Positions 3,240-64,000 of a stretch of 64,000 nt of DNA are shown here, in pieces; position 1 is the stretch's first letter; every line of letters begins with the position of its first letter. The stretch covers positions 40,319 to 104,318 of the forward strand of contig CAZFBW010000001.1 in NCBI GenBank assembly GCA_964517625.1, read 5' to 3'. The stretch comes from an uncultured Candidatus Saccharibacteria bacterium. Lineage in GTDB: Bacteria; Patescibacteriota; Minisyncoccia; Phycocordibacterales; UBA5272. The position numbers and the translations under genes were made by a program. The notes under the pieces are model-generated. The model saw nothing but the letters and a program-made list of their open reading frames with translations, did not search any database and was not told the origin of the DNA.

Positions 3240-3387
3240 AAATTCGGTTCAATGAACCAAAACTTCCACAGAGTCACACCTGAGTGTGAACGTGGAAGTT
3301 TTTTATTTTATGGCGGGAATCGCTTCTCCCTTCGGTCGAAACGCACTATTTTTATAGTCACTTCGTTTCTTAAAAATAGGCGCCCTC

Positions 3388-3410
3388 GGTTCGATTCCCG
3401 CCGGAGGGCA
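3388..3410 (+). repeat. Inverted copy of the tRNA-Arg 3' end (ggttcgattcccgccggagggca) lying just past the tRNA terminator
   Basis: 22/23 identical to the 3' T-loop/acceptor of the minus-strand tRNA at 3435..3506, but on the opposite strand. It is part of the composite element at 3311..3412. Confidence 0.7.
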
Positions 3411-3434
3411 AGGAAAAACACGAAGTGTTTTTAG

Positions 3435-4063: not shown

Positions 4064-4201
4064 CAAAAATTAAAAAACTGCGTGAAAGCAGTTTTTTAAT
4101 TTTGCTGGAGCCGGGCTTGGGAAGAGGGTCGGAGAAACGGGAGTTTCTCCGTGGCGGAAGAATCGAAACCGCAGGGTTTCGAAACAAAACTCTGTTTTGT
4201 T

Positions 4202-4224
4202 GAGCCTGGGTCCCAGCACAAAAA
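4202..4224 (+). repeat. 23-nt direct repeat of the tRNA-Phe 3' end plus flank (gagcctgggtcccagcacaaaaa)
   Basis: Identical to 4047..4069. About 137 bp separate the two copies, and the second is followed by an 11-bp-stem hairpin at 4226..4254. Confidence 0.8.
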
Positions 4225-11082: not shown

Positions 11083-13599
11083 ATGTCGTTTATTTCCAAG
11101 GCAATTGAGTTGGTTTTCCCGCCTGAGTCGGTACGCCTCATTAAGAAACTTGAGCCCCTCGTTGATGAGGTTTTTGGATATGAAGAAGCACTAAAGGCTC
11201 TTTCAAACGACGAATTAAAAGCGCGCAGTTTGGCACTTAAAGAGCAAGTGCAAAAAGAACTTACTGGTCTTTCTGGGGAGGAACGCAAAAAAACAGAAAA
11301 GAAGGTTTTGGATGCAGTGCTTCCAGAGGCGTTTGCACTTGTGCGTGAGTCAGCTCGTCGTACGCTTAAAATGATGCACTATCGCGTGCAGGTGGTTGGA
11401 GGCATGCTTCTTAATATGGGTCATATTGCAGAAATGCGTACCGGTGAAGGAAAGACGCTTGTTGCCACGCTTCCGGCATACTTAAATGCGCTCACTGGCC
11501 GCGGTGTACACATTGTTACGGTAAACGACTATCTCTCTCGTCGCGACGCGGTGTGGATGGGGCAGGTGTATGACATGCTTGGACTCTCGGTTGCCGTCAT
11601 TAACCATCAATCATCCTACCTCTACGACAGTACCCACCTTTCACAAGAAGAGGAAAAAACTGAAGACGAGAAGCGTGATGATGTTGGTTCATATAAAGTC
11701 GTCTACGATTTTCTAAAACCGTGCACGCGCCAAGAAGCATACAAGGCAGACATTACCTATGGAACAAACAACGAGTTTGGTTTTGATTATTTGCGCGACA
11801 ATATTGGCTACGCGGTTGATTCTTTGTCTCAGCGTGAGCACCATTACGCAATTGTGGACGAAATCGACTCAATTTTGATTGACGAGGCACGTACCCCGCT
11901 TATTATTTCCGCACCAGCGCAGGAATCAAGCGATATGTATAAGAATTTTGCACGTATCGCATCCCAACTTGTGGAAGGGGATCACTATACGGTAGATGAA
12001 AAACAGCGCGCAATTGCACTCACCGAAGCAGGTATCTCCTATGCAGAAGAACTGCTCGGCGTTTCAAATATTTATTCGGTATCTGGCATGCAATACGTGC
12101 ACCATTTGGAAACCGCGGTCAAAGCAAAAGCACTTTTTATCAAGGAACGCGAATATGTTGTGCGCGATAACGAGGTAATCATTGTTGATGAATTTACGGG
12201 ACGCATGCAACCAGGACGTCGTTGGTCAGATGGGCTTCATCAAGCAGTTGAAGCAAAAGAAGGGGTAAAAATCGAACAAGAATCTCGCACTCTTGCTTCT
12301 ATTACGTTCCAAAATTATTTCCGCTTCTATGAAAAACTTTCGGGTATGACCGGTACCGCGGAAACATCTAAAGAAGAATTTTATAAAGTATATGGACTTG
12401 TTGTGTCTCCTGTACCAACACACCACCCAATTAAGCGTAAGGATCACAATGATCTCATTTTCCAAACCGAAAAAGGGAAATGGAAAGCACTTGCTCGAAA
12501 AATTAAAGAACTTCACGATAAAGGACAACCGGTACTTGTCGGTACTATTTCTATTGAAAAGAACGAAGTGCTTTCAAAGTATCTTGAACGTGAAGGAATT
12601 CCTCACGCTGTACTTAATGCGAAGAACCACGAACAGGAAGGTGAAATTATTGCAAATGCGGGAGCGCGCGGGGCAGTGACGATTGCAACTAACATGGCAG
12701 GTCGTGGAGTGGACATTAAACTTGGTGGTCCGCAAGCAACGGAAGCTGAGCGTGAAGAAGTACTTCGTCAAGGTGGTTTGTATGTGATTGGTACTGAGCG
12801 TCATGAAGCACGCCGTATCGACAATCAGTTGCGGGGTCGTTCAGGACGACAAGGGGACGTGGGTGAGACGCAGTTCTTTGTGTCGCTTGAAGATGAGCTT
12901 ATGCGTGTGTTCGGGTCAACCAACATCAAGAGTATGATGGGGCGTTTTGGTATTCCAGAAGATGAACCAATTGATTCTAAGCTCGTCTCTCGAGCACTTG
13001 AGGGTGCGCAAGAAAAAATTGAAGGATTTCACTTTGATACACGTAAACACACGCTTCAGTATGACGATGTTTTGAACCACCAGCGAAGAAGTATTTATGA
13101 TAAGCGTCGTAAAATTTTGTTCCACGACAAGGAATATTTTGAGGAATTGATGAATTCGGTTGTTGCATTCAAACCCGAAATAGCAGAGCTTATTGCGACG
13201 AAAAAGAAGGAGTACGGTGAAGAGGTTTTTATGAGTGTTGTTTCTATGATGGCGCTTCAAGTAATCGACATGCTTTGGATGGACCACCTCGACCAAATGG
13301 AGCACATGCGAAATAGTGTGAATCTTCGCTCATACGGACAACGTGATCCACTTGTTGAATACAAAAAAGAAGGGCTTCGTATGTTCAGAGGATTGGAACA
13401 AACAACGCTTCACGACCTCGTTCTCTTCATTGAAAACATTGATGGTGTTATGGCCGCACAGCATAATCGCGAACGTGTCGCGGCAGTTGCAAGCGAAAGA
13501 GATAGAGTAAAAGCTGGACGCAATGACCCATGCCCATGCGGAAGTGGAAAGAAGGTAAAGAAGTGCGATTGTGAGGAGTTTGCTTACTTGAGGAAGTAG
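11083..13599 (+). CDS. secA: Preprotein translocase ATPase SecA
   Basis: DEAD-like motor motifs and the C-terminal zinc finger CPCGSGKKVKKC. Confidence 0.9.
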   Translation: MSFISKAIELVFPPESVRLIKKLEPLVDEVFGYEEALKALSNDELKARSLALKEQVQKELTGLSGEERKKTEKKVLDAVLPEAFALVRESARRTLKMMHYRVQVVGGMLLNMGHIAEMRTGEGKTLVATLPAYLNALTGRGVHIVTVNDYLSRRDAVWMGQVYDMLGLSVAVINHQSSYLYDSTHLSQEEEKTEDEKRDDVGSYKVVYDFLKPCTRQEAYKADITYGTNNEFGFDYLRDNIGYAVDSLSQREHHYAIVDEIDSILIDEARTPLIISAPAQESSDMYKNFARIASQLVEGDHYTVDEKQRAIALTEAGISYAEELLGVSNIYSVSGMQYVHHLETAVKAKALFIKEREYVVRDNEVIIVDEFTGRMQPGRRWSDGLHQAVEAKEGVKIEQESRTLASITFQNYFRFYEKLSGMTGTAETSKEEFYKVYGLVVSPVPTHHPIKRKDHNDLIFQTEKGKWKALARKIKELHDKGQPVLVGTISIEKNEVLSKYLEREGIPHAVLNAKNHEQEGEIIANAGARGAVTIATNMAGRGVDIKLGGPQATEAEREEVLRQGGLYVIGTERHEARRIDNQLRGRSGRQGDVGETQFFVSLEDELMRVFGSTNIKSMMGRFGIPEDEPIDSKLVSRALEGAQEKIEGFHFDTRKHTLQYDDVLNHQRRSIYDKRRKILFHDKEYFEELMNSVVAFKPEIAELIATKKKEYGEEVFMSVVSMMALQVIDMLWMDHLDQMEHMRNSVNLRSYGQRDPLVEYKKEGLRMFRGLEQTTLHDLVLFIENIDGVMAAQHNRERVAAVASERDRVKAGRNDPCPCGSGKKVKKCDCEEFAYLRK

Positions 13600-17084: not shown

Positions 17085-17264
17085 CAAAAAATAAGGAGCA
17101 AAGCGACTATATTTTTGTGATGTCGGAGTACTTAGACTTTTATGAGTGAAGCGAAATAAAAGGCTTTAGTACTATCGACGCACAAATAAGACATCAAACC
17201 AAAGGATTTCTAAGGAGCGAACCGACTCGTAAGGGTCACGGGTAAAAGTGCTATAATTGAGAAA

Positions 17265-24260: not shown

Positions 24261-24328
24261 AGGAAAATAGTACCAGAATAGGGGGAAAGCGCAATGAGGG
24301 GGAGAGAAACATGGTCGTCATTATGTTG

Positions 24329-24415
24329 CGGAGAGAGCGAGATTCGAACTCGCGGACCCAATAAAGGGTCGACAGTTTAGTAAACTGTTGATTTAAACCA
24401 CTCATCCATCTCTCC
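24329..24415 (-). tRNA. Type-II (long variable arm) tRNA, Ser-like, with apparent anticodon ACU (unusual A34)
   Basis: GGAGAGAUGGAUGAGUGGUUUAAAUCA-ACAGU-UUACUAA-ACUGU-variable arm-GCGAG-TTCGAAT-CTCGC-UCUCUCC-G. G73 discriminator. A TATAAT promoter lies about 30 nt upstream. The anticodon is read from a hand fold. Confidence 0.6.
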
Positions 24416-24441: not shown

Positions 24442-24465
24442 GCGGCGCAGAATTATAGTCGCTTT
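24442..24465 (-). promoter_or_regulatory. tRNA promoter -10 region (minus strand aaagcgacTATAATtctgcgccgc); 24-nt motif repeated at 26223..26246
   Basis: Exact TATAAT positioned correctly for the tRNA at 24415. The same 24-mer recurs 1.78 kb away. Confidence 0.55.
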
Positions 24466-24595
24466 GCTCCTTAATTCTGCATCCTGCAAAAATATGGTTG
24501 CCCCACTCCTTCTTGTGTTGCTAGACGCAACACGTGCGAAGTGATTTGAAGCTTTTTTGTATGGAACGCTTCGCTTGCAAAAAACTTAAAATCAG

Positions 24596-26222: not shown

Positions 26223-26246
26223 GCGGCGCAGAATTATAGTCGCTTT
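26223..26246 (-). repeat. Second copy of the 24-nt tRNA-promoter motif (gcggcgcagaattatagtcgcttt), with no tRNA downstream
   Basis: Identical to 24442..24465 and directly adjacent to the 3'-fragment copy of tRNA-Ser(CGA). Confidence 0.8.
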
Positions 26247-26255
26247 ACGCCTTGT

Positions 26256-26278
26256 TTTTGCGGAAATGGTGGGATTTG
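26256..26278 (-). repeat. Orphan copy of the tRNA-Ser(CGA) 3' end (23 nt), about 180 bp from the intact tRNA
   Basis: ttttgcggaaatggtgggatttg is identical to 26454..26476. Confidence 0.8.
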
Positions 26279-26458
26279 GTCACCAAACATATCTTTTTAT
26301 TTCATGACTACATTCATAAAAAGATTGTTTCGCGACCCCGACTTCACCCTCGCTGTTTTTGATTACAAAATCAGACTTCGTCTCGGGTTCAGTTCAAATC
26401 TACTCATTTCTCGCAAAATACAATTGCACAAAGCTCACGCTTCGTGCTCATTATTTTG

Positions 26459-51312: not shown

Positions 51313-51709
51313 CAGATTACCTTTCACGGTTGCTGTGTTAGACCAAAATTTCTTGACCGTTTTCAAGGATAAATGGAATCATTGGAAAATCGGCGCATGT
51401 GCGAGGTGGTTTTTCTTCTGGTGTTTCTTCGGGTGGAGGAGACGGTAGATTTTCTCTGGTGTCCATGGTCAAATCCCTTTTAGTTGAAAGAGCAACACAA
51501 TACACCTTACCACGTGAAAAGTTACTCGTAAAGATGGTGTTTTTATGATAGTATTGTTATTTATAAGCAATGCCGGAGTGGCTCAAGTAGCTTGGCTACG
51601 CAGACGTCTGTAGCTAGCAAGCGAAAGACGCTGAATGGTTTCCATTCCGAGCATGTGTAATGTGTTTATTATATTTTTTGTAGAAAGATATAAACAATAA
51701 GAGAATTAT

Positions 51710-51790
51710 GCCGGAGTGGCGGAATGGTAGACGCGCGCGACTCAAAATCGCGTATCGCAAGGTGTGGAGGTTCAAGTCCTCTCTCCGGCA
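51710..51790 (+). tRNA. tRNA-Leu (anticodon CAA)
   Basis: Type-II tRNA. Acceptor GCCGGAG/CUCCGGC, anticodon stem CGCGA/UCGCG with loop CUCAAAA, T-arm GGAGG-TTCAAGT-CCTCT. Terminator at 51801..51835. Confidence 0.85.
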
Positions 51791-51851
51791 CTATAAATAT
51801 AAAATGACCACATACACGAAGTGTGGTTATTTTATATTTACTGTACCTGGT

Positions 51852-51955
51852 GGAGAGAGGACTTGAACCGAAGGCGACATATTTTCTTAGACTGTAATCA
51901 GTCTGTTGAAAATACAAGTCTCGACTGAAAGGAGAAACAAGTCCTCTCTCCGGCA
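51852..51955 (+). repeat. Composite tRNA-associated element (Leu copy): inverted 18-nt copy of the tRNA-Leu 3' end, a conserved about 55-bp core with a hairpin, then a direct 18-nt copy of the tRNA 3' end
   Basis: 51852..51869 is the reverse complement of GGTTCAAGTCCTCTCTCC. The core gaaccgaaggcgacatattttcttagactgtaatcagtctgttgaaaatacaagtctcga is shared with 63107..63166. 51938..51955 (caagtcctctctccggca) is identical to the tRNA 3' end. Confidence 0.8.
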
Positions 51956-51981
51956 TAGCAATTGCGCTATACTTACTCCAT

Positions 51982-52584
51982 ATGACCTTCATTTCAAAAT
52001 ATCTTCCCCACCTTTTACTTGCTGTCTATGCAATCGAGTTTGGGATATTAAGTATCAATCCATACGCGCGCGATGTGTGGTTTGTAGAGAATCTCACGGT
52101 TCTTGTGATTGTTGTTTTACTTGTGATTTTGTATGCAAAAGGAATTCGTTTTTCAAATACAGCGTATGTGCTCATGTTTATTTTGCCATTTCTACACACC
52201 ATAGGGGGACACTATACGTTTGAGAAAGTTCCATTTGATTGGTTCAATGATATGTTTGGATTTGAAAGAAATATGTATGATCGAGTTGCACACGCAACCG
52301 TGGGGCTCTATGCTTTCCCACTTGCTGAATACTTGCTTTCTAAGAAAAAAGTAGCGAGCGCTTTTTGGGCAACATTTACCTCACTTTGTTTTATTGTAAC
52401 CGTTGCGGCGGTGTATGAATTATTTGAATGGCAATATGCGGTGAACGCTGACCCAACTGCTGGTATTGCCGTGCTTGGTGCACAAGGGGACATTTGGGAT
52501 GCACAGAAAGACATGCTCATGGATACACTGGGTGCTGTAACCGCACTTGTCATATTTAATGTGCGGAGACTTTTTTCGAAGTAG
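51982..52584 (+). CDS. Membrane protein (YjdF/DUF2238-like, 5-6 TM helices)
   Basis: 200 aa with GGHYTFEKVPFDW… pattern. Confidence 0.5.
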   Translation: MTFISKYLPHLLLAVYAIEFGILSINPYARDVWFVENLTVLVIVVLLVILYAKGIRFSNTAYVLMFILPFLHTIGGHYTFEKVPFDWFNDMFGFERNMYDRVAHATVGLYAFPLAEYLLSKKKVASAFWATFTSLCFIVTVAAVYELFEWQYAVNADPTAGIAVLGAQGDIWDAQKDMLMDTLGAVTALVIFNVRRLFSK

Positions 52585-62975: not shown

Positions 62976-63059
62976 GCGTCGGTGGTGGAGTGGTCAATCA
63001 CAACAGACTGTAAATCTGTCGCCCTTAGGGCTTCGAAGGTTCAAATCCTTCCCGGCGCA
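62976..63059 (+). tRNA. tRNA-Tyr (anticodon GUA), type II, with an encoded CCA
   Basis: Acceptor GCGUCGG/CCGGCGC, A73 then CCA, anticodon stem ACAGA/UCUGU with loop CUGUAAA, long variable arm, T-arm GAAGG-TTCAAAT-CCTTC. Terminator at 63063..63090. Confidence 0.85.
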
Positions 63060-63092
63060 CCAAGAAAAATACCCATCAGGGTATTTTTTAAT

Positions 63093-63198
63093 GCCGGGAA
63101 GGATTTGAACCGAAGGCGACATATTTTCTTAACCTGTAATCAGGTTGTAGAAAATACAAGTCTCGAGCGTAGCAACGCGAGAGGCAAATCTTTCCCCC
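63093..63198 (+). repeat. Composite tRNA-associated element (Tyr copy): inverted 19-nt copy of the tRNA-Tyr 3' end, the conserved core with a covarying hairpin, then a degenerate direct copy of the tRNA 3' end
   Basis: 63093..63111 is the reverse complement of GGTTCAAATCCTTCCCGGC. The core is 52/57 identical to the Leu copy. The hairpin taacctg-taat-caggttg covaries with Leu's tagactg-taat-cagtctg. 63185..63198 (caaatctttccccc) resembles CAAATCCTTCCCGG. Confidence 0.8.
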
Positions 63199-63249
63199 AC
63201 AAACTTTTCTCTTTTTTGGTATACTAAATTTACTTGTAAAGCACAGGTT

Positions 63250-64000
63250 ATGGCCCACGTAGAAACTTCTATTTATTGGATTGAGACTGACAAAATTGTT
63301 CCGAATCCGTTTCAACCACGGCGCGAATTTGACGAGCAACGACTTCGCGAATTAGCCGAGAGTATTCGCCAGTACGGCGTGCTTCAACCACTCGTCGTTT
63401 CTCGTGTTGAAAAAGAACTTCCCGATGGTGGTATTAGGGTTGAATATGAATTGATTGCGGGTGAGCGCAGACTCCGTGCGTCAAAACTTGCAGGCGTTCT
63501 TTCTGTGCCGGTTGTTGTGCGTACAGGGGACGATAGTCGCACTAAACTTGAACTGGCTATTATTGAAAACCTCCAACGAGAAAACTTAAACCCAGTTGAA
63601 CGTGCACGTTCATTTCAGCGCTTGGCGGATGAATTTAAATTAAGTTGGGCAGAAGTGGGAAGAAAAATGGGAAAGTCGCGCGAATATGTTTCTAATACCG
63701 TTCGCATCCTTATGCTTCCGCAGGATATTTTGGACGCTCTTTCTCGTGGAGAAATAAGCGAAGGCCACACACGCCCGCTTCTTATGCTCATTGATAAGCC
63801 TGCTGAGCAAATGACACTGTTTAAGGAAATGATGGTGCGCAAGATGACAGTGCGCGAAGCAGAACAAATTGCGCGCAGAATCGCGTTTGAAAAAGTTCGT
63901 AAAAAGGATCATTTTATGACACCGGAAGTGGTGGAAATGGAAGAAAAAATTGCAGAAACACTCGGTACGCGTGTGCAGATTGAACCACGCGAACGAGGGG
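63250..64000 (+). CDS. parB: Chromosome partitioning protein ParB (Spo0J), N-terminal 250 aa; continues beyond the window
   Basis: ParB box GERRLRAS and HTH region; the ORF is open to the window end. Not in the ORF track because no stop falls inside the window. Confidence 0.85.
   Translation, partial: MAHVETSIYWIETDKIVPNPFQPRREFDEQRLRELAESIRQYGVLQPLVVSRVEKELPDGGIRVEYELIAGERRLRASKLAGVLSVPVVVRTGDDSRTKLELAIIENLQRENLNPVERARSFQRLADEFKLSWAEVGRKMGKSREYVSNTVRILMLPQDILDALSRGEISEGHTRPLLMLIDKPAEQMTLFKEMMVRKMTVREAEQIARRIAFEKVRKKDHFMTPEVVEMEEKIAETLGTRVQIEPRERG

Follow-up and report, generated by a model that had tools for sequence, protein, structure and literature searches.

The 108 bases at positions 63091–63198 of the window (the whole 64,000-nucleotide stretch of DNA that we analyzed) form a structured module bracketed by copies of the 3′ end of the neighboring tRNA-Tyr gene, and it is one member of a family of such modules. 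Each module is located just after the terminator of a gene, mostly a tRNA gene, and follows the same plan: the host gene's 3′ end appears first as its reverse complement and again, beyond a hairpin-rich core, as a direct copy. The literature that we searched contained no description of such an element, and the family of structured modules bracketed by copies of the target gene's end is apparently undescribed. We favor, with moderate confidence, the reading that these are non-coding, ~100-nt, non-autonomous mobile or duplicative hairpin elements of Patescibacteria that are acted on in trans. This reading builds on what was directly observed, namely, the architecture, the family, the presence and absence of modules in close relatives, their stacking, the maintenance of the hairpin, and the strand that folds.

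The Element Behind tRNA-Tyr and Its Sister Copy

The Tyr copy is positioned behind the intrinsic terminator of tRNA-Tyr, and parB starts downstream of it at 63250 (Table 1). The 19-nt inverted copy of the tRNA-Tyr 3′ end (GGTTCAAATCCTTCCCGGC) that the initial annotation had assigned to 63093–63111 proved exact, and the degenerate direct copy that it had placed at 63185–63198 was also recovered: the 3′ arm, CAAATCTTTCCC (63185–63196), matches the T-loop/T-stem of tRNA-Tyr at 11 of 12 positions and then diverges. The two arms pair over 12 bp, one of which is a G.U pair that works only on the + strand. As the arms pair with each other, the gene-sense single strand would fold into a closed stem carrying the core hairpins. 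In the predicted fold, this closing stem is a continuous 12–16-bp helix, not an acceptor plus T-arm, and it bears a long central hairpin and a variable second hairpin, the latter being much shorter in the Leu copy and longer in the related locus L082 than in the Tyr copy.

Table 1. Positions of the modules, their parts, and the host tRNA genes in the window.
Feature	Position	Strand	Remarks
Module behind tRNA-Arg	3310–3412	−	Different core, same architecture
Module behind tRNA-Phe	4103–4219	+	"Phe-type" core, GGGTCGG..CCGTGGCGGAAGAATCGAAACC
Module behind tRNA-Ser (CGA)	26260–26416	−	Three-way-junction "type-2" core; CM R1, 52 bits
Mirror-image module, 5′ side of tRNA-Leu	51570–51655		
tRNA-Leu (CAA)	51710–51791	+	Host of the sister copy
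Leu copy	51852–51955	+	5′ arm, core, 3′ arm
Leu 5′ arm	51852–51869		18/18 reverse complement of the tRNA-Leu 3′ end
Leu core	51868–51924		
Leu 3′ arm	51938–51955		18/18 direct copy of the tRNA-Leu 3′ end
tRNA-Tyr (GTA)	62976–63062	+	Host gene copied at its 3′ end; ARAGORN; Rfam tRNA, 59.9 bits
Terminator hairpin of tRNA-Tyr	63065–63089	+	AAAAATACCC atca GGGTATTTTT and a T run; read from the sequence and by comparison with L082
Tyr 5′ arm	63093–63111	+	GCCGGGAAGGATTTGAACC, exact 19-nt reverse complement of the tRNA-Tyr 3′ end
Tyr core	63110–63166	+	57 nt, common to the Leu copy (52/57)
Central long hairpin	63122–63156	+	Outer stem TATTTTC/GAAAATA, inner stem TAACCTG/CAGGTTG, loop TAAT
Second, variable hairpin	63160–63184	+	TCTCG..GCGT agca ACGC..CGAGA
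Tyr 3′ arm	63185–63198	+	Degenerate direct copy of the tRNA-Tyr 3′ end

The Leu and Tyr copies agree at 91% of the 67 nt of their common repeat (51858–51924 versus 63100–63166), and alignment of the cores (51868–51924 versus 63110–63166) returned the 52 of 57 identities claimed for them at the outset. From Leu to Tyr, the differences are GA>AC at 63132–63133, TC>GT at 63144–63145, and T>A at 63149. Four of these five had been described as pair-preserving, and they are indeed two double changes (G:C>A:U and A:U>C:G) in one stem of the central hairpin of the Tyr copy (63122–63156); the fifth lies in an internal loop and gives an extra pair in the Tyr fold. When five random substitutions were simulated 2,000,000 times, the probability of at least two double-compensated pairs was P = 2.2e-4, and that of no broken pair was P = 0.077. 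We regard these two copies as recent sisters that have one core type and acquired arms specific to their targets.

Three homologues of this core were available (Leu, Tyr, and L082), in addition to a truncated match in L001. The third homologue, from L082, shows further double changes in the same hairpin. A covariation test of the hairpin was run on these three, and the pairing was kept: 5 of the 14 pairs of the hairpin were changed on both sides and 97.6% of the cells were paired, whereas none of 500 shuffles was as good and all slid controls were at zero. Furthermore, RNA folding was asymmetric between the strands, the MFE being −44.8 kcal/mol for the sense versus −41.5 kcal/mol for the antisense strand of the Leu copy (z −6.9 versus −5.5), −41.6 versus −34.6 kcal/mol for the Tyr copy (z −5.7 versus −3.1), and −38.0 versus −32.7 kcal/mol for the tRNA-Arg module. 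Several G.U pairs exist on the sense strand only, including one that was made by a C>T change in the Tyr 3′ arm. The folding predictions thus place the folded form on the gene-sense (+, tRNA-sense) strand and not on the minus strand. Compensatory changes beyond chance, together with strand asymmetry, are what was found here for a structured single-stranded element, be it RNA or ssDNA.

Could the conserved DNA instead encode small proteins on the minus strand? The look-alike peptides RDLYFQQTDYSLRKYVAFGS (51864–51923) and RDLYFLQPDYRLRKYVAFGS (63106–63165), to which the initial annotation had drawn attention, were readily reproduced, and such look-alike stretches of 20 residues would be the argument for coding. 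However, the ORFs that contain them (51669–51992 and 63088–63339, minus strand) have only these 20 core-encoded residues in common and no similarity beyond the core. The former runs antisense across the entire tRNA-Leu gene, and the latter begins antisense inside parB. In the frames of these ORFs, all of the differences between Leu and Tyr are non-synonymous, yet the pairing is intact, just as had been noted. Homology beyond the repeat, a gene context, and a synonymous bias were all absent from the two minus-strand ORFs. Judged by these comparisons, the ORFs appear to be spurious and protein coding is not credible; we give this reading next to no probability.

A more serious alternative is that the module is a structured RNA with a cellular, tRNA-related role, which we consider somewhat unlikely. 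It might act as a mimic or decoy for RNase P, RNase Z, or the CCA-adding enzyme, or as a cis-acting trailer or 3′-UTR element; in the trailer variant, the arm would have two alternative partners, the tRNA 3′ end and the copy downstream. As the closing stem reproduces the acceptor/T-stem of the neighboring tRNA, a tRNA mimic or decoy is possible, and the compensatory changes, the G.U pairs on the sense strand, and the better folding of that strand all speak for an RNA. On the other hand, strong terminator hairpins lie upstream of the modules, and no sigma-70-like promoter site was found between the terminator and the element. A scan of the window and eight related loci at Rfam gathering scores returned only tRNAs, and permissive Rfam scans of the element and of one type-2 copy gave only chance-level matches (E > 0.3), so that no Rfam relative was found. 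ARAGORN and RF00005 called no tRNA or tRNA-like gene at 63091–63198 or 51850–51955 on either strand. Self-cleaving ribozymes (hammerhead, twister, pistol, hatchet, and HDV-like) had no match in Rfam, and the three-way junction of the type-2 core does not contain CUGANGA.

In DNA palindromes, moreover, templated quasi-palindrome correction can yield paired changes without any selection on RNA. The structured RNA and the RNA-level selection proposed in the initial annotation were therefore borne out in part. The pairing is maintained (5 of 14 pairs, 0 of 500 shuffles) and coding is not credible, and the inference of selection for pairing and against coding was right. However, the upstream terminator, the absence of a promoter-like site and of an Rfam match, and the possibility that quasi-palindrome correction gave the paired changes mean that the term "structured RNA" is not yet justified.

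A Family of Modules With Several Core Types

Of the eight tRNAs that the window contains, at least five (Arg, Phe, Ser-CGA, Leu, and Tyr) are followed by modules of the same plan, with differing cores, and tRNA-Glu has a degenerate one. The mirror-image module at the 5′ side of tRNA-Leu consists of a copy of the first 10–11 nt of that tRNA, a core, and then the complement. We compared these modules with related metagenome loci, 80 of which came from a scan with the ParB N-terminus and 8 from a ClpB search, and found the same architecture behind tRNA-Tyr, Cys, Trp, Leu, and Lys in the relatives. For 22 of the 109 tRNAs (~20%) in these loci, an exact 10–11-mer from the 3′ end recurred, inverted or direct, in the 300 nt downstream, compared with ~0 expected by chance. 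By the names of its homologues, the organism is a member of the Patescibacteria (Paceibacteria/Parcubacteria-like), and the exact ClpB of the window matched no record.

The cores recur at unrelated targets. The Phe-type core was found at tRNA-Phe (window), tRNA-Leu (L082), and tRNA-Tyr (L084); the type-2 core at Trp, Leu, Tyr, Ser, and Lys tRNAs and at topA; and the Leu/Tyr core at two tRNAs. The type-2 core has the consensus ..GA A NNN GGAG [hairpin] GAG N'N'N' GGGGTCG [hairpin] CGTGAC C.., for which RNAalifold gave 27 pairs, 18 of them with compensatory changes, and one G.U pair was invariant in 13 of 13 copies. CM R1, which represents this core, found 17 copies in 0.82 Mb and more in newer loci, and all of its matches with an identified upstream gene (16 of 16) were oriented like that gene. 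The possibility that the Leu/Tyr core is a diverged three-way-junction core was rejected, as R1 gave it no score with the filters off. The Arg and Phe modules also remained unscored under these conditions. Since R1 scores none of the Leu/Tyr, Arg, and Phe modules, the family has several distinct core types.

Many copies carry an extra 5′ hairpin, "X", in which the stem is variable and the CTGC loop is conserved, and a hairpin with a TGTAA loop recurs in the cores on at least six different stems. Related cores also keep certain loops and unpaired nucleotides unchanged (GGAG/GAG, GGGGTCG, TGTAA, and CTGC), and these count in favor of a cellular RNA; together with the conserved G.U pair, they would fit a functional RNA equally well as the mobile element that we favor.

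Not all of the targets are tRNA genes. In 4 of ~40 loci (L006, L014, L028, and L068), a three-way-junction module is present at the 3′ end of topA, and the gene is duplicated over its last 70–85 nt, stop codon included. The copy that ends the gene is followed in order by the X hairpin (in L028 and L068 only), the 5′ arm, the core, and the other copy, which has the native terminator; the 5′ arm is complementary to the start of the duplicated segment. The duplicate copies are 95–97% alike within L006 and within L014, at a place where the genomes are ~20% different; those in L028 have diverged. In L006, the stop codon precedes the module and the terminator follows it, so that the module would be co-transcribed, which is another point for the RNA alternative. 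In L011, the core at 3308–3391 lies between inverted 27-nt duplicates of the ribosome-binding site and start codon of a gene.

A core-pattern DNA scan of viral contigs gave 0 matches, and that of one-genome-per-species contigs gave a single partial match, in a Saccharibacteria MAG (L001). The type-2 viral scan produced 81 pattern matches, mostly by chance, and one clear CM match, which lies in a CPR-like contig without a link to an integrase. BLAST of the element against phage and plasmid records found no match.

Presence, Absence, and Stacking in Close Relatives

In L082, whose ClpB is 97% identical, the same tRNA-Tyr and terminator are followed by AATGCCGGG and no element. After AATGCCGGG come 11 unrelated nt and then the shared parB promoter region; the window has a 96-nt element there. 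The first 6 nt of the Tyr 5′ arm (GCCGGG) are already in this empty site, and the insertion proper runs from 63099/63100. L083 (ClpB 96%) also has no element at tRNA-Tyr, and L084 (ClpB 92%) has a different, Phe-type core behind it. Close relatives do without the module. In general, a mobile element is marked by sites that are filled in one close relative and empty in another and by one sequence that occupies several loci, and both were found here.

Stacking was also observed. At tRNA-Leu of L082, a Phe-type module is adjacent to the gene. Beyond it stands a homologue of the Leu/Tyr core that has diverged and whose 3′ arm has decayed, as would be expected if newer insertions displaced older ones outward. 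L011 contains an identical tandem copy of a module, and L006, L013, L014, and L022 contain stacked modules with several decaying 3′-end copies. These results weigh against a cellular RNA. The closest relatives lack the element at the same tRNA or have an unrelated core instead, the Tyr 3′ arm is decaying (11/12, then divergent), and the modules are stacked in the manner of insertions.

No transposase, integrase, or reverse transcriptase was detected among the 30 window proteins (housekeeping only by Pfam) or beside any copy. Since no such enzyme is encoded near the copies, we favor a non-autonomous element that is acted on in trans. Among the copies, we saw no fixed target-site duplication and no free, circular, or cargo-bearing form. 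That neither a mobilizing enzyme nor a free form was found counts against mobility.

Alternatively, the modules might be scars or miniatures of a tyrosine-integrase element (phage, ICE, or CIME-like), with the direct copy as attR and the core as the attP arm region. Consistent with this, the direct repeat ends exactly at the tRNA end (up to 19/19), the topA 3′ end is replaced and displaced, as for elements that enter the 3′ ends of protein genes, and the modules accrete in tandem. However, no integrase or cargo was seen at any of the more than 30 copies, and the viral contigs gave no link to an integrase. Every tRNA-end repeat is 94–180 nt away and none is long-range; no tRNA 3′-end repeats were found at more than 200 nt, nor was any large island flanked by such repeats. 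The stems covary, unlike protein-binding arm sites. At tRNA-Tyr, the insertion follows the unchanged native terminator, of which there is no second copy, whereas Campbell integration within the tRNA would predict one. At tRNA-Leu of L082 and at topA, a new 3′ end seems to have taken the place of the gene's old one, which is displaced. On balance, we regard an integrase origin as improbable.

Origin of the Arms and the Core

Where do the arms come from? In many copies, among them those of L007, L008, and L006 and the Phe module of the window, a single long palindrome spans the tRNA 3′ end, the terminator, and the 5′ arm. Element-free sites (L082 and L016) already have a 6–7-nt complement of the acceptor strand (GCCGGG or GTGCGCC) after the terminator, and the Tyr 5′ arm of the window runs on seamlessly from the pre-existing GCCGGG into the complement of the T-arm. 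The arms extend into the genomic flank and not into CCA, which indicates that they were copied from DNA and not from mature tRNA.

The core also bears traces of a tRNA. The Leu/Tyr core opens with 12 nt, CCGAAGGCGACA, whose reverse complement is the variable-arm region of the tRNA-Tyr of relatives and not of this genome, and the Leu copy holds CAGTCTGTTG, the reverse complement of the anticodon stem of tRNA-Tyr. Given these two complements, the Leu/Tyr core type probably originated at a tRNA-Tyr before it was retargeted to tRNA-Leu. The switch from Tyr to Leu would lie at the T-loop sequence TTGAACC, which is common to both tRNAs.

Three related origins were considered and set aside. A primer-binding site, in which the arm would pair with the mature tRNA with its CCA, does not agree with arms that continue into the genomic flank and terminator. 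The Leu copy does contain TGGTG, a chance exception to the absence of a CCA complement. A DGR-like template and variable repeat for the topA end was rejected, as the differences are not adenine-specific and topA is not a DGR-type gene. A retro-element origin is weakened by the reported lack of group II introns in Patescibacteria (PMC13011429), and no reverse transcriptase was found in the window.

It is conceivable that the modules are a passive by-product of palindrome dynamics, that is, of snap-back or template-switch replication at terminator and tRNA hairpins, without function or mobility. The "compensatory" changes would then be templated quasi-palindrome correction. The single long palindrome of tRNA 3′ end, terminator, and 5′ arm agrees with such an origin, as do the short complement (GCCGGG/GTGCGCC) that pre-exists in element-free sites, the core start and CAGTCTGTTG as complements of the tRNA-Tyr variable arm and anticodon stem, the mirror module 5′ of tRNA-Leu, and the 27-nt inverted duplication of a gene start in L011 (3308–3391). 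However, local rearrangement cannot produce cores that recur, conserved unpaired nucleotides included, at targets that are unrelated and in genomes that are distant. In addition, the loops are constant while the stems vary, and the G.U pairs are conserved and strand-specific. We therefore consider this explanation unlikely.

In the mobile-element reading that we prefer, a trans-acting factor encoded elsewhere would recognize the folded single strand, which might be ssDNA exposed during replication or DNA uptake, or a read-through RNA. The compensatory changes would reflect the need for the stem to stay paired in this strand. The arms would arise by copying of the target. In one route, the terminator palindrome would snap back and be extended into the 3′ end of the tRNA, after which the template would be switched at the conserved T-loop; in the other, the 3′ end of the gene would be duplicated by recombination. 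The cores, of which there are several types, would be exchanged between targets. As the junction evidence is mixed between the two routes, the arm-building step is one that we infer, and one mechanism may not cover the junctions at tRNA-Tyr, at tRNA-Leu of L082, and at topA.

A bolder version of the proposal is that the modules are a new self-propagating class, which copies the target's 3′ end into both arms, mimics the target by its fold (for tRNAs, the acceptor/T-stem helix), and spreads in a hairpin-templated or nucleic-acid-guided manner without a protein of its own. We find this doubtful. If true, selfish elements, or RNAs that mimic tRNAs, would have a new means of choosing and marking gene ends in the reduced genomes of Patescibacteria.

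Discussion

Patescibacteria have tiny genomes with very little non-coding DNA. In this setting, structured modules of 100–200 nt turn over between strains that are 92–97% identical in ClpB. If the modules are mobile, they would be a new kind of small element, with ends that are made from the target itself, and the mechanism would be of interest in general, be it template switching, folded-strand recombination, or guidance by complementarity. Should they be RNAs, they would be tRNA-linked structured RNAs that were not known before. In either case, the modules are a hazard for annotation, as they give rise to ORFs that look alike, to partial copies of tRNAs, and to duplicate gene ends.

How do the modules compare with known systems? 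They resemble tRNA-like structures and retroviral primer-binding sites in having 18–19 nt complementary to a tRNA 3′ end and a closing stem that reproduces the acceptor/T-stem. However, the complementarity extends into the genomic flank and not the CCA tail, and no reverse transcriptase was found, unlike what is expected of primer-binding sites; and unlike tRNA-like structures, the modules have no T-loop or anticodon-arm geometry and no tRNA call from ARAGORN or Rfam.

Tandem inversion duplications (TIDs) and quasi-palindrome template switching have reportedly been described by Kugelberg/Roth, Ripley, and Lovett. The direct–inverted–direct layout of the modules, their junctions at hairpins, and the concerted changes on both palindrome arms are similar to these. 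TIDs, however, are large, unstable, and locus-specific, whereas the modules have a conserved core that recurs at many targets in many genomes.

Short palindromic or MITE-like repeats with fixed terminal sequences, such as REP/REPIN, BIME, Correia, and RPE, are well known in bacteria, and REPINs rely on RAYT. Like these, the modules are short, non-coding, and hairpin-forming and stand just after genes or terminators; they are present in multiple copies per genome, vary between strains, and would depend on an enzyme encoded elsewhere. They differ from REP/REPIN-type repeats in their termini, which are an inverted and a direct copy of the neighboring gene's 3′ end and therefore differ from site to site while the core is shared. 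With site-specific termini, no fixed target-site duplication, and no RAYT-like or other transposase among the 30 window proteins, the modules do not fall among the MITEs or REPINs.

The integron attC and the CTX-phage attP(+) are imperfect hairpins formed from one strand, in which the structure is conserved over the sequence. In attP(+), the stem mimics the chromosomal target, and the integrated order is target copy, rest, inverted arm, loop, and target copy. The modules share the strand-specific imperfect hairpin and the CTX-like order of target copies, the latter being an analogy of architecture alone. Unlike in CTX, the "rest" is at most a terminator, and strand exchange at the modules is purely hypothetical. 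The known sites are recombined as folded strands by IntI or XerCD and have conserved R/L boxes or a dif-like stem; no integron integrase or Xer context came to light at the modules.

Finally, integrative elements at the 3′ ends of tRNAs and other genes, and the integrase-less CIMEs, duplicate the 3′ end of their target and accrete at att sites. The modules are unlike them in that the whole unit is only 100–200 nt and gene-free, with an extra inverted copy of the target and covarying hairpins, and in that the insertion at tRNA-Tyr lies after the gene and its terminator, not within the gene. On the other hand, they share with these elements the duplication of the target 3′ end, the replacement of the topA end, the older copies that are pushed outward, and the preference for tRNA genes.

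Modules at Protein-Coding Genes and at Gene Starts

We found a three-way-junction module at the 3′ end of topA in four related loci (L006, L014, L028 and L068), where it is bracketed by a duplication of the final 70–85 nt of the gene, stop codon included. In two of these loci (L006 and L014), the two copies of the topA end are nearly identical within each genome. The insertion was absent from topA in about 35 other loci compared.

A core hairpin in the related locus L011 lies between two perfectly matching, mutually inverted copies of a 27-nt sequence (GGAAAACAGGAAAAC ATGAGTTTAGAG), the source of which is the ribosome-binding site and first four codons of a gene. Because the core is bracketed by an inverted duplication of a gene start, modules can occupy gene starts too. 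The window also has a mirror-image module about 55 nt upstream of tRNA-Leu, in which a copy of the first 10–11 nt of the tRNA, GCCGGAGTGG, is followed by a structured core and then by the complement, CCATTCCGAGC. Its predicted fold has an energy of −35.4 kcal/mol (z −3.0), and its counterpart in L082, the locus with a 97% identical ClpB, contains GAAGGCGAC.

Features of the window and of the related loci
Feature	Sequence	Positions	Strand	Source or detail
topA-end module	L006	12667-12852	-	
topA-end module	L014	4993-5171	-	
topA-end module	L028	12948-13145	-	
topA-end module	L068	12887-13090	-	
Core hairpin and flanks	L011	3308-3391	-	
Mirror-image module	window	51570-51655	+	5′ side of tRNA-Leu
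Type-2 core, duplicated tRNA-Tyr end	L013	2253-2370 and upstream	-	
Type-2 module	L047	2090-2340	+	
Two type-2 modules in tandem	L092	2843-3191	-	IMG/VR UViG 3300033463_005745
Second-family hairpin	window	17086-17118	+	
Second-family hairpin	window	24446-24478	-	
Second-family hairpin	window	26227-26261	-	
Second-family hairpin	window	3345-3378	-	within Arg module
Second-family hairpin	L028	about 12925-12965	-	
tRNA-Ser, anticodon ACT	window	24328-24415	-	loop TTACTAA; ARAGORN; Rfam tRNA 56 bits
Gene with Pfam 23S_rRNA_IVP/bAvd matches	L085/L086	7385-7741	+	

Modules and Hairpins near tRNA Ends

Downstream of tRNA-Tyr in two related loci (L016 and L082), the terminator stem reaches into the tRNA even where there is no module. 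The terminator is followed by a 6–7-nt complement of the 3′ strand of the tRNA-Tyr acceptor, so that its hairpin can sequester the 3′ end of the tRNA.

About 1 kb from tRNA-Tyr, L013 carries a second copy of the final 7 nt of the tRNA together with its terminator, the extra 5′ (X) hairpin, the arm and a type-2 (three-way-junction) core, with no tRNA preceding it. In L047, the arms of a type-2 module match the 3′ end of a tRNA-Trp; neither ARAGORN nor Rfam called a tRNA-Trp upstream of the module, and all that lies there is a short piece resembling a tRNA 3′ end, GTTCGAGCCCGAGACGGCCCGCA, which has a terminator of its own. The tandem modules of L092 carry copies of tRNA ends on a contig that is filed as viral, in a stretch too short to distinguish a phage from a Patescibacteria fragment.

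A second hairpin family, present in the window and in L028, has a conserved, Shine-Dalgarno-like loop of 16–18 nt (AAGGAGCAAAGCGACTAT in the tRNA sense) on stems that differ in each copy. These hairpins lie immediately 3′ of tRNA-Glu, tRNA-Ser-GCT and the Ser-CGA module, and the L028 hairpin and the displaced topA end overlap at the stop codon of the latter. Immediately downstream of tRNA-Ser(GCT) in the window is the tRNA-Ser with anticodon ACT called by ARAGORN; A34 is unusual for a bacterial serine tRNA.

The syntenic region of the window lacks a gene that the relative with 84% ClpB identity (L085/L086) carries between its aminotransferase and superoxide dismutase genes. The product matches 23S_rRNA_IVP/bAvd, a family of DGR accessory proteins.
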